In this document: positions 13,269-16,059 of the stretch, piece after piece | Layout: every line of letters begins with the position of its first letter | Position numbering within the stretch: the stretch's first letter is position 1 | Source: Candidatus Doudnabacteria bacterium | GTDB lineage: Bacteria > Patescibacteriota > Doudnabacteria > UBA920 | Direction: 5' to 3' | Length of the DNA stretch: 64,000 nt | Assembly: GCA_016788665.1 (NCBI GenBank) | Contig: JAEUSF010000002.1 | Coordinates: 73,387 to 137,386 of the forward strand | The notes under the pieces: model-generated | What the model was told of the DNA's origin: nothing | The model's input: the letters and a program-made list of their open reading frames with translations, nothing else | Databases searched by the model: none | Translations under genes and position numbers: made by a program

Positions 13269-13574
13269 TTAAGACTTGTTTTGAAAAATTACCCTTATTA
13301 TTTCCATTTCTTTTTCCACACTTTCGTTTATAAGTGACAACAGCCCCGTCTCATAAGCGGCCAATTTTTCAGCTTCTTCGTAAGGATTAGAGCTGGTTTC
13401 CAAAACTTTTAAAAATTCGTGTTTTTTTTCAGAAGGCAGCGCACCGACAAAAGTTTCCATTACAACTTTAAACAACCTGTCTTTAAACATTTCTTTGGCA
13501 TTTAAAATTTCTTCATCCGTACCGGTTAAACCCAATTCGGAAAAGAAAACATTTATTTTTTCGTTTAAGTCCAT
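13269..13574 (-). CDS. Small acidic alpha-helical protein, unknown function, co-transcribed with the upstream large gene
   Basis: 101 aa. Only a 4-nt gap separates it from the stop of 13579..16059. No recognisable motif. Confidence 0.4.
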   Translation of the reverse strand: MDLNEKINVFFSELGLTGTDEEILNAKEMFKDRLFKVVMETFVGALPSEKKHEFLKVLETSSNPYEEAEKLAAYETGLLSLINESVEKEMEIIRVIFQNKS

Positions 13575-13578
13575 GTTT

Positions 13579-16059
13579 TTATTTAGTCAGCTCCTTAACC
13601 ACCTCTCCCCCACCAAGCACCTTTGGGGTATGAATTAAGTCATTACTTTCATTTACAAAATTGTCGGGCTGTAAGTTTGGCAAAAACTCTCTTACCGCCT
13701 GGCTTAGCTTGTGGTCAGTATTTAAAAGCTGTTTTAAATTTTCAATTTGCGCATGAGTTAAGTGCTTAGACTTTTCTACGGCTTCCGCCACCAACTCGCC
13801 TTGTACCCCAAAATTTGTATTTGGTCCATAACCCAAAGCCTCTAACTTCCTTCTTAAATAATCTTCAGCATAAACCATTTGCTCAATAGACAAATTCGAA
13901 CTTTTCCCAAATTTGTTTAAAACATTTTCATTTGTTAAGTAGTCGTGAACCAAATTTCTGGCCGCTATAGTTAAACTTTGGGTTTTTTCAAAAGTAGCTT
14001 GATAAACTTTTTCCTGAATTTTTTCTTGATACGCATTAATTACTTCTGTAGGTGGAACTAAAAGTTTTTCCGCACCCGGTATGGGTACGGGAGCTTCAAC
14101 AATTAATGGTTTTGGACCATAGCCCAAACTTTTATATATTTCCCCAAACCATTCCTTTGTTTTAGCCGGTACGCCAAACCAGTCACGCTCACTGCCAAAA
14201 GCCAAAAACTCACCCGCAATAGTAGCACCCAAAGCTCCGGCTGCCGCACCCTTTATGGCCGCTGAGGCTATTTTCTTTTTGTCGATTTTTAACTTATCTA
14301 GTTTTTCTAAAATTTCAGACCTAAGTTTATTTTCAGTACCGGATAGCTCGCTAACGTTGGCCGACTCTACTTGAAAATATGCCACCAAGTCTTTAGCGGA
14401 CATTTTTTCCCCACGTTGCTTTTTTAACTTAAGCTCGGTAAGCAATTCCTCACTTTTCTCGTCCAATTTTTTTTCTGGGTCTATGTTTTTAGTATTGGTT
14501 ATAAAATCAACCAACTTTTCTGTCCTTGCAGCCAAAGCTTTTCTTTGCTGCCAGTACTCTCTTACGCCAGCCGAAGCCGCACCAGAAAAGCCTCCCACGA
14601 CAGCGTTTACACCCAGCCCCGCCGTATCAAGAGCCGCCTTGGCCCCAATTCTAACCAAAGAACCGGAAGCACCAGCCAAAGCCACACCTTTCCAATCAGT
14701 GTTTTCTACAGTTTTCCAAACCCTCTTCCATATTTGTCTTTGCACCGCCGGCTTTTCAATTTCTTTTTTTATTTCCTCTGGTTCACTTTTAACTTCTATC
14801 TTAGGCTCAGGCAAAACGTCAGGCTCCGCCGACTTTTCCTCTGCTTGCTGACTTGGTAATTCAAGCGGGTTTAAAACCGAAGAATTTGCCATTTGCTCTT
14901 CTAAGTTAACCCCCCTGTTTTGAACTTTTTTATCAGAACGGGACAAAAGCCCTCTAACAGATGCGCTCAAGCCCAAGACCGCACTCTCGCCTTTCCTTTG
15001 CGCAGAAACTTTAGTATTTTGAACAGCTTCGCCTACCATTGTCTTAACGTTTGAAAAGGCTTTAAATAAAACTTTTTTTCTTTCTGCAACATTAGCTAAC
15101 AGCTCTTGATTTCTTTCTACAAAACCCGGCTTTTTTTCTGGTATTTTTACCACTTCATGTTTTGCTTTTTCTTGTTCCAAAACAACTTTAACCACCACAG
15201 CAGCCCTATCTTCACTCTTGTTGCCCAAATCTTTAGCAGTAAAATCTCTTGCAATATCTTGAGCAGACCTTGGACTCAAAAGTAATTGCTTTATACCTGC
15301 TTCGCTTTTGCCCTTCAAGGCTCCATCAGTAGCAAGCAAAAAAACATCACCCGACTTTACATCTCTTACCGGACTTAGGTCAGCACGCGCCCTACCTCCA
15401 GCACTCATAGTACTTTCTGCAGAAATAATTCGGTCAAACCTGACCATGGTCATATTAGGATTTACAGGATTTGGAGTTTCTCTTGTATGTTTTTCGGGAG
15501 TAAGTAAAGTCAGCTCGCCTTCAGACAAATGATATATAGAACTATCACCCACATAAGCAGCTACCGCCTCAGCAGAATTTCCGTGTGTATTTTTAAATAA
15601 ACCTAAAACCGCCGCTGTTGTTTTATGACCCTGGGCTTTATTTAAATTATCAGAAATATACTTTGCAGCTGAAGGAAAAAGTTTTATAAGCTTTTCTGAA
15701 AAGTTTGTGACCGGCGACCCATCTAAATTCTTTTCAAAAAACGAACTAAGTTTACTTTGAAAATAATTTTTAGTTCTTTCTCCCGCGGAAACTCCCAAGA
15801 CTTTTTCATTTACCGTATCAAAAACACCAAAAGCCGCCTGTCCTTCTGTTTCAAAATTTCCAACTTCCATAGTAAAGTCACCGCTTTCTCTATGACTAGA
15901 ATCTTCAGCCTTTTCACGTCCCACACCCACTTCTAACTTAATTTTAGGTTCTTTTTCTTTAACTTCTTTGGTCTCACTTAAAAACCCGGTCTCCATAGTA
16001 CCTTGGCCGGAAGCGTCTAACTCAGTTCTAAATAACCTACCAAAAGGGCCTAGCCCCAT
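13579..16059 (-). CDS. Large (826 aa) protein with an N-terminal PP2C/SpoIIE-like phosphatase-fold domain, a Lys/Glu-rich coiled-coil region and glycine-zipper segments
   Basis: PPM-like motifs AFGVFD (DGHGG position degenerate), AAYVGDSSIY (resembling NVGDSR) and VFLLATDGALKG (resembling LASDGLWD). The middle and C-terminal parts have K/E-rich repeats and two GxxxG/AxxxG-rich hydrophobic stretches. Upstream is a -10 TATAAT with no SD. Confidence 0.5.
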   Translation of the reverse strand: MGLGPFGRLFRTELDASGQGTMETGFLSETKEVKEKEPKIKLEVGVGREKAEDSSHRESGDFTMEVGNFETEGQAAFGVFDTVNEKVLGVSAGERTKNYFQSKLSSFFEKNLDGSPVTNFSEKLIKLFPSAAKYISDNLNKAQGHKTTAAVLGLFKNTHGNSAEAVAAYVGDSSIYHLSEGELTLLTPEKHTRETPNPVNPNMTMVRFDRIISAESTMSAGGRARADLSPVRDVKSGDVFLLATDGALKGKSEAGIKQLLLSPRSAQDIARDFTAKDLGNKSEDRAAVVVKVVLEQEKAKHEVVKIPEKKPGFVERNQELLANVAERKKVLFKAFSNVKTMVGEAVQNTKVSAQRKGESAVLGLSASVRGLLSRSDKKVQNRGVNLEEQMANSSVLNPLELPSQQAEEKSAEPDVLPEPKIEVKSEPEEIKKEIEKPAVQRQIWKRVWKTVENTDWKGVALAGASGSLVRIGAKAALDTAGLGVNAVVGGFSGAASAGVREYWQQRKALAARTEKLVDFITNTKNIDPEKKLDEKSEELLTELKLKKQRGEKMSAKDLVAYFQVESANVSELSGTENKLRSEILEKLDKLKIDKKKIASAAIKGAAAGALGATIAGEFLAFGSERDWFGVPAKTKEWFGEIYKSLGYGPKPLIVEAPVPIPGAEKLLVPPTEVINAYQEKIQEKVYQATFEKTQSLTIAARNLVHDYLTNENVLNKFGKSSNLSIEQMVYAEDYLRRKLEALGYGPNTNFGVQGELVAEAVEKSKHLTHAQIENLKQLLNTDHKLSQAVREFLPNLQPDNFVNESNDLIHTPKVLGGGEVVKELTK

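Follow-up and report, generated by a model that had tools for sequence, protein, structure and literature searches.

What do two adjacent genes, both annotated as "hypothetical", encode in a bacterium of the candidate phyla radiation (CPR)? The genes lie on a stretch of 64,000 nucleotides (the window) from a metagenome-assembled genome (MAG) of Candidatus Doudnabacteria. The first codes for a protein of 826 amino acids (aa; NCBI locus tag JNN11_01520) and the second for an acidic partner of 101 aa (JNN11_01515). The genomes of CPR bacteria are tiny and code for many proteins to which no function has been assigned, and the cells rely on contact with a host. An earlier reading of the letters alone, which we call the original prediction, had described the larger product as a PP2C-like (PPM/SpoIIE-type) protein with coiled-coil and glycine-zipper segments. 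Our favoured explanation, to which we give about an even chance, is a two-gene CPR operon in which a PP2C domain is fused to a membrane module and joined by a small companion, so as to form a transmembrane phosphatase. Here we infer the catalytic activity, the membrane topology, the role of the partner and the signalling function.

According to this explanation the first gene would encode a cytoplasmic, probably metal-binding PP2C Ser/Thr phosphatase domain, followed by a disordered linker and a module of ~390 aa. In the module, a hairpin of Gly/Ala-zipper type (segment A) would be connected by a charged helical loop to a GxxxG zipper helix (segment B), and a Pro-rich stalk would then lead to a C-terminal domain with a new fold. 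The N-terminus would lie inside and the C-terminal domain outside the cell, with segment A dipping into the membrane from the cytoplasmic side and segment B crossing it. The acidic, helical product of the second gene would be an obligate cytoplasmic companion of the zipper/helical part, with a possible role as chaperone, assembly factor or regulator. Module and partner would form the ancestral unit and the PP2C domain would be a lineage-specific addition, giving a transmembrane phosphatase with a logic similar to that of PstP, in which envelope events could control the dephosphorylation of cytoplasmic proteins.

The two open reading frames (ORFs) were found on the minus strand with the coordinates and the spacing that had been predicted: the stop codon of the 826-aa ORF (TAA at 13579-13581) and the ATG of the partner are separated by 4 nt (AAAC). 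The motifs quoted in the original prediction were also present, namely FGVFD at residues 77-81, AYVGDSSIY at 168-176, FLLATDGALKG at 240-250 and DTVNE at 81-85. Compared to its 61%-identical ortholog at the locus L001, the 826-aa gene differs at 27/23/55% of codon positions 1/2/3, and for the 101-aa gene (65% identity to L001) the rates are 28/15/50%. The excess of differences at the third codon position indicates that both genes are real and under purifying selection.

For the N-terminal part we compared sequence profiles. A profile of two sequences matched the solved cyanobacterial PP2C tPphA (2j82) with E=2.7e-5 across residues 80-290 of the query, and in this alignment D81, D172, D245 and D284 fall on the metal ligands D34, D119, D193 and D231 (numbering counted in the alignment). 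An ortholog with ~35% identity (P0004) exceeds the Pfam cutoffs for PP2C_2 (35.1 vs 24) and for PP2C (20.7 vs 20.3). When the N-domains of five family members were aligned with eleven proteins that pass the PP2C_2 cutoff, hhalign reported a probability of 99.65% (E=4e-25, 200 columns). These comparisons identify residues ~71-295 as a true PP2C homolog, and the PPM-like N-terminus of the original prediction is borne out by profile methods. The degenerate first metal-binding motif, with DTVNE in place of DGxGG, was likewise described correctly.

Five Asp residues (D61, D81, D172, D245 and D284) are invariant across the five family members. D81 is located in DTVNE, D172 in GDSS, D245 in TDG and D284 in DR, and D61 is the putative metal-binding Asp of motif I. 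The PP2C segment is under purifying selection, with 22/22/52% differences to L001 at codon positions 1/2/3, and it is conserved to the same degree as the C-terminal domain. We conclude from these residues and rates that the domain is an atypical PP2C which is probably still metal-binding. Matches to SpoIIE were found for the homologs P0003 and P0004 only (17-19 bits, cutoff 25), and a direct sequence comparison of the 826-aa protein with PstP was weak (E~0.6). An N-terminal MGxGF... peptide is common to close relatives only, and we therefore rejected it as a family-wide feature.

An exhaustive HMMER search with the 826-aa protein returned 363 matches, and their distribution shows that the PP2C domain and the stretch of residues ~440-826 are conserved separately. 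The linker between them matches the closest ortholog only and has the lowest conservation in the protein (48% identity to P0002 and 11-26% to P0003/P0004, with indels); differences to L001 of 41/37/61% at the three codon positions point to relaxed constraint. Among the best 150 cluster representatives, residues 440-826 recur as a single unit of ~390 aa in at least 45, mostly without PP2C. The proteins that carry this module range from 390 to 2260 aa and differ in their N- and C-terminal extensions, for which Pfam gave no domain match except a degenerate PP2C in P0014. One genome can hold more than one copy: P0008 (686 aa) and P0014 (1156 aa) are module paralogs on a single ENA contig of 288,680 bp. 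Judged by these homologs, the cassette is a conserved family without annotation in the sources searched. Hence the earlier statement that no close analogue is recognisable stands for annotated families but fails for the module itself, and the possibility raised there of a known conserved family with a different architecture was partly realised. The combination of domains is unusual as predicted, with a PP2C fusion in 5 of the 17 fetched module loci.

Within the 826-aa protein, conservation is highest in segments A and B. The Gly/Ala-rich stretches that had been predicted were found at residues 456-500 and 596-623; their number has to be corrected, as the first consists of two segments, A1 and A2. 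Segment A1 carries conserved basic residues (Arg/Lys) and A2 ends in GVREY..ER. The hairpin of segment A and the single zipper helix of segment B share Gly/Ala-rich, weakly hydrophobic GxxxG helices with the glycine-zipper hairpins of the Gly-zipper 2TM, Rick_17kDa_Anti and SlyB-like type. This resemblance is one of motif pattern only, and the query gave no match at E<=1 to the Pfam glycine-zipper families (Gly-zipper 2TM, YMGG, Omp). Residues 506-595 were modelled, with moderate confidence, as several short helices rather than one long coiled coil. The description of everything beyond the phosphatase domain as a K/E-rich coiled coil was therefore wrong: a variable linker (296-439) is followed by the conserved module, which ends in an alpha/beta domain. 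The best PDB match of the whole-module model in Foldseek had E=2.7, and among homologs we found weak DUF3482 matches only.

Modelled alone from 42 sequences, the C-terminal domain reached a predicted local distance difference test score (pLDDT) of 90 and a predicted template modelling score (pTM) of 0.88. The model runs from a helix through a beta-alpha-alpha-beta unit to three further helices, and the sequence signature is T..AR..HDY ... VYAEDYL. A Pfam search with all 42 members gave nothing consistent, the sequence profile had no match in the PDB and the best match of the model to viral structures had E=0.68. Judged against Pfam, the PDB and viral structures, the model thus appears to represent a new fold. 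The beta-alpha-alpha-beta order prompted a comparison with LysM, which we rejected because there was neither a Pfam LysM match nor a structural likeness.

In at least 8 short relatives the C-terminal domain stands behind a strong single transmembrane helix, with a mean Kyte-Doolittle hydropathy (KD) of 2.1-3.1, and a stalk rich in Pro/Glu/Thr (Cys-rich in P0124). K and R lie on the N-terminal side of the helix, which is a type-II layout. This classical anchor suggests that the C-terminal domain faces outward. Short single-TM proteins with this domain (L018 4542-5192, L019 1694-2557, L025 5554-6234, L026 4849-5487 and also P0123) share a second conserved motif directly before the membrane helix, K/S-A/S-K-S/N-N/S-G-W-S/G ... 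F-F/L-G, which looks like a cytoplasmic juxtamembrane element. For proteins with the full module, K+R counts across 21 sequences were 4.8 before and 4.2 after segment A, and 5.4 before and 1.6 after segment B, where the K/R-rich flank is followed by an acidic or neutral one. Segment B is marginally hydrophobic and the best candidate for a transmembrane helix. This flank pattern, the Pro-rich stalk after segment B and the type-II anchors of the short relatives favour a putative arrangement with the N-terminus inside and the C-terminus outside.

The partner of the window is acidic (net charge -8), as are all of its homologs (-5 to -18). A homolog adjoins the module gene in 16 of the 17 fetched loci that have a full module and usable flanks, a count which includes the near-duplicate pairs L020/L014 and L024/L016. 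We found it beside five PP2C-bearing versions (window, L001, L002, L003, L013) and beside eleven versions that lack PP2C and measure 464 to 2022 aa (L004, L010, L014, L015, L016, L017, L020-L024), mostly 1-21 nt downstream of the module gene and sometimes immediately upstream. L009 is the exception, with just a 53-aa fragment at a distance of 820 nt. No partner was found next to four proteins that have the C-terminal domain only (L018, L019, L025, L026). The partner therefore tracks the zipper/helical part, and this distribution indicates that it belongs with that part of the module and not with the phosphatase or the C-terminal domain. The partner, which tracks exactly this region, may supply the help that the weakly hydrophobic helices may need for insertion or assembly. 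The original prediction was right about an acidic and tightly linked partner; its statement that the partner has no motif did not hold, as we are dealing with a conserved family.

We also compared the partner family with known small proteins. Three divergent members among 11 homologs matched Pfam DUF5663 (PF18908), a family of uncharacterised proteins of similar size, with 14.3-15.7 bits (cutoff 23.7) and near-full-length alignments (1-78, 2-66 and 4-75 of 84 profile positions), whereas the partner of the window gave no DUF5663 match at E<=1. The literature search found no mention of DUF5663. For TacA/DUF1778 (PF08681) the best score was 17.3 bits with a cutoff of 21, across 36-48 residues of the C-terminal helix, and the family matched PDB 7zg6 with E=0.001. 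We rejected membership in either family, as all scores are below the cutoffs and, with regard to TacA, the neighbour is a module protein and not a GNAT protein.

All 15 scanned genome and metagenome loci and all named cluster members that carry the module are from CPR genomes, a result which is no proof of restriction because the scan patterns were narrow. The hosts are Doudnabacteria, Parcubacteria/Paceibacterota, Liptonbacteria, Spechtbacteria and MAGs labelled Saccharibacteria (all Patescibacteria). We found uvrA directly upstream of the cassette in the window, L001, L002, L003, L013 and also L007. UvrA is 82-94% identical between loci and the cassette protein only 35-61%, which points to a far higher rate of evolution in the cassette than in the adjacent gene. 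In L007 the slot beside uvrA holds a PP2C-less version of 550 aa, which indicates that the PP2C domain is gained or lost in place at one syntenic site.

We also offer, tentatively, a broader interpretation that we rate well short of an even chance: the core could be a fast-evolving two-gene envelope cassette, in which a partner-dependent zipper module displays a new-fold surface domain and to which individual lineages add further domains, either cytoplasmic or C-terminal. The DUF5663-like acidic protein would then keep the zipper module soluble, inserted or oligomerised, and with the PP2C domain added here, what had been a module for surface contact would become a device for transmembrane signalling. 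Fast evolution, which the cassette shows relative to uvrA, is common among surface or interaction proteins. If correct, the cassette could contribute to host sensing or attachment by episymbiotic CPR bacteria. Seen as a phosphatase, the protein would be a variant of known membrane-associated PP2Cs and only modestly surprising. Signal transduction in CPR bacteria is poorly characterised, and the PP2C fusion is a concrete starting point for its study. Literature searches for CPR with PP2C, Patescibacteria with glycine zipper and Doudnabacteria with phosphatase found nothing relevant. A "hypothetical protein" would now have a defined architecture: an atypical and probably active PP2C, a conserved membrane-associated module, a probably surface-exposed domain without known fold relatives and an obligate small partner.

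Several of our results weigh against a transmembrane phosphatase, and they concern the catalytic domain, the zipper segments, the partner and the genomic context. For the catalytic domain we compared the protein with PP2Cs of the Stp1/PrpC/tPphA type (PP2C_2 PF13672, PP2C PF00481), which stand alone with ~240 aa and share a homologous catalytic domain of ~200-220 residues; here the domain is fused to a C-terminal extension of 530 aa. The 826-aa protein had no Pfam match at E<=1 and matched NCBIfam Stp1/IreP (Stp1_PP2C_phos) with E=7e-6 but with only 25.7 bits for a cutoff of 230, so that it stays below all curated PP2C thresholds, those of NCBIfam Stp1_PP2C_phos and of Pfam PP2C_2, PP2C and SpoIIE. 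All family members have DTVNE in place of DGxGG and DR in place of DN, GDSR reads GDSS or GDSA and the Arg of motif I is not conserved (R/R/K/Q). As the glycines of DGxGG, the Asn of DN and the Arg residues of GDSR and motif I are altered, activity may be lost or altered. The fifth Asp is probably equivalent to D18 of tPphA: D61 aligns with the Asp of the motif-I NED by MAFFT alone, its support being this alignment and its invariance in the family, and the hhalign alignment begins at residue 73.

The domain could accordingly be a pseudophosphatase, which would keep the fold and perhaps the metals, perform no dephosphorylation and serve as a scaffold on the module that binds phosphoproteins or ligands. 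We consider this unlikely, though by no means negligible. Besides the missed cutoffs and the substitutions fixed in the family, it is favoured by the paralogous fusion P0014, whose degenerate PP2C-like N-domain has lost the Asp of motif II (SPFNLKGGD). The five invariant Asp residues correspond to those that coordinate M1, M2 and M3 in bacterial PP2Cs, and together with the purifying selection on this well conserved domain they speak against a pseudophosphatase. In canonical PP2Cs the remaining ligand is supplied by backbone carbonyls and not by Gly side chains. A protein with DTVNE for DGxGG and every metal-binding Asp apparently kept would allow a test of which PP2C motifs catalysis truly needs.

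The zipper segments raise the second difficulty. Segments A1, A2 and B have a mean KD of just 1.0-1.4. Their insertion energies come to about +7, +6.5 and +4.9 kcal/mol, compared to -0.6 to -3.1 kcal/mol on the same scale for the true anchors of the related short proteins; the energies are crude Hessa-scale sums with approximate scale values and no position weighting. Model confidence was also low in segments A and B. The low scores make autonomous membrane insertion doubtful, and the claim that these stretches could insert into the membrane thus survives as a possibility with a hydrophobicity far below that of true anchors. Instead, the Gly/Ala helices might form a soluble or peripheral bundle held by the partner, with the whole 826-aa protein in the cytoplasm. 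We judge this improbable but serious. It would agree with the basic residues within segment A1, with the lack of a signal peptide in any family member and with a partner which itself has no signal peptide yet tracks exactly the zipper/helical region. The larger members (P0012, P0013, P0015, P0018, P0023, P0028, P0041; L014, L020) also fit, since 30-120 residues past the C-terminal domain they contain another hydrophobic segment or a repeat copy of segment A, followed by E/K/A-rich extensions of up to 1700 aa, and in these proteins the C-terminal domain would be a loop between two membrane elements. What speaks for the membrane is that the flank charges obey the positive-inside rule across the 21 sequences, that segment B is followed by a Pro-rich stalk and that the same C-terminal domain occurs behind type-II anchors and Pro/Thr/Cys-rich stalks. 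Moreover, known glycine-zipper hairpins are embedded in membranes despite their low hydrophobicity (e.g. the Gly-zipper 2TM / SlyB family).

With regard to the partner, a putative binder of the module, we compared charges: the loop that links segments A and B does not consistently carry the charge that would complement an acidic protein. The net charge of this loop ranges from -5 to +8, and we rejected charge complementarity as an explanation. The context was compared with that of PstP from M. tuberculosis (PDB 1txo, 2cm1), where a cytoplasmic PP2C is likewise followed by a linker, a membrane segment and an outer domain; for our protein this topology is predicted. PstP spans the membrane with a single classical helix, is not known to have a dedicated small partner and is encoded in a kinase/FHA operon, whereas here we have three marginally hydrophobic Gly/Ala-zipper segments, an unrelated outer domain and a small partner, and a regex search, which is a narrow test, detected no Hanks-kinase motif in the 64-kb window. 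Proteins of the SpoIIE/RsbU type (PF07228) also join divergent PPM domains to membrane or regulatory modules and are controlled by partner proteins. In these proteins the regulatory or membrane part comes first and the PPM domain stands at its C-terminal side, but in our protein the PPM domain is N-terminal; given this reversed order and the SpoIIE matches below cutoff and in homologs only, we did not assign the protein to this type.

A further explanation starts from the genes that follow. About 1 kb downstream of the pair, both in the window and in L001, come pilB, pilC and four genes for pseudopilins, all with the same orientation as the pair, and the phosphatase might regulate this type IV pilus by controlling assembly or retraction proteins (pilB, pilC, pseudopilins). 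We regard this as very unlikely. Downstream pil genes are confined to the window and to L001, its closest relative, with other genes found in L003, L004, L010 and L013, and the conserved neighbour is uvrA; a functional link between the pair and the pilus genes is for this reason unlikely. The two units are also separated by a promoter-like site, a hairpin and an unrelated GC-rich gene (Table 1). On the other side of the pair the stop codon of uvrA sits within a perfect 11-bp hairpin followed by a T-run, and an extended -10-like sequence lies ~30 nt upstream of the ATG of the 826-aa gene. These signals (16090..16130) were read by eye and were not reported by the automated signal scan; the region looks like the pair's own transcription start region. 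Taken together, the signals upstream and downstream make the two genes look like a bicistronic unit of their own. An AAGGAG hexamer precedes the ATG of the partner by 16 nt, a spacing that exceeds the usual one.

Least probable of all is a toxin-antitoxin-like conflict module, in which a glycine-zipper pore former would be neutralised by the adjacent small acidic antitoxin: the sub-threshold likeness of the partner to TacA, the glycine zippers that occur in known channel formers, the fast evolution of the cassette and its variable appended domains fit such a module, but the TacA match spans just ~36-48 helix residues, the locus has no GNAT toxin and no PADLOC match, the cassette stays syntenic beside uvrA across diverged genomes without mobile-element genes, and the proteins are large (400-2200 aa) and have a structured outward-type domain. 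A phage or defence origin of the cassette was rejected as well, as PHROGs gave matches only at E>=0.01 and PADLOC none. No paralogs were found in the 64-kb window.

Table 1. Position of the two genes, the parts of the 826-aa protein and the neighbouring features in the window.
Feature	Residues	Position	Strand	Basis
826-aa ORF (PP2C-like domain, linker, conserved CPR module)		13579..16059	minus	ORF list, homology search, codon-position analysis
Hydrophilic N-terminal region, no signal peptide, invariant S59-G60-D61	1-70	15850..16059	minus	alignment
Divergent PP2C/PPM catalytic domain	71-295	15175..15849	minus	profile comparisons
K/E/P/S-rich variable linker	296-439	14743..15174	minus	identity, indels, codon analysis
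Segment A, two Gly/Ala-rich helices (A1, A2), K/R-rich on both flanks	440-505	14545..14742	minus	alignment
Helical stretch of high charge, linking A to B	506-595	14275..14544	minus	alignment, model
Segment B, GxxxGxxxG glycine zipper (KGAAAGALGATIAG)	596-625	14185..14274	minus	alignment
Pro-rich spacer or stalk, low model confidence	626-670	14050..14184	minus	alignment, model
Conserved C-terminal domain	671-800	13660..14049	minus	42-sequence alignment, model
101-aa acidic partner ORF		13269..13574	minus	ORF list, homologs at other loci
uvrA		16122..18980		
Terminator-like hairpin at uvrA 3' end, followed by T-run		16104-16130	minus	read directly from sequence
Extended -10-like TGGTATAAT		16090-16098	minus	read directly
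Promoter-like site TTGACT-17-TATAAT (11 of 12 consensus), downstream of partner, for next gene		13212-13240	minus	
Hairpin AAAAAACCGT-GCAA-ACGGTTTTTT with T-run		13178-13201	minus	
219-aa ORF, probable start M14		12497..13156	minus	
Type IV pilus set (pilB/T2SSE, pilC/T2SSF, four N-methyl-motif pseudopilin-like ORFs), then SpaA-like protein, sortase and LVIVD-repeat protein		4047..12316	minus	

The hairpin downstream of the partner lies ~68 nt past its stop codon and is a possible terminator of the gene pair. It also lies within ~11 nt after the promoter-like site and would open the transcript of the 219-aa gene; it could thus be a shared terminator or a leader attenuator. The 219-aa protein, encoded between the pair and the pil genes, resembles a signal peptide at its N-terminus and ends in a PEP-CTERM-like sequence, PEPATFFLVGAMLVAAGLAKAKGG, which scores 15.5 bits in Pfam (cutoff 20.7). 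Its gene is a compositional outlier, with a GC content of 0.58 and a third-position GC content (GC3) of 0.61 compared to ~0.40 and 0.32-0.38 for its neighbours. The protein is 78-79% identical in L001, which is above the surrounding genes, and under purifying selection. A PEP-CTERM-like sorting signal beside a pilus/sortase cluster is odd in a CPR genome. After the pilus set come genes for a SpaA-like protein with a prealbumin fold, for a sortase and for a protein with LVIVD repeats, and the order in L001 is identical.

Two of the compared loci showed irregularities. In L001 (113-2993) uvrA is broken into three ORFs of 605, 120 and 282 aa, either by frameshifts from assembly errors or because it is a pseudogene. 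In L004 (JGI Ga0490021_000231) the region 120-7986 mirrors 8001-15394, with the same genes (G6PD, 6PGD, a cyclase, a 464-aa module protein, a 102-aa partner and a CLIPPER protein) in inverted order, which is probably a palindromic assembly artefact.

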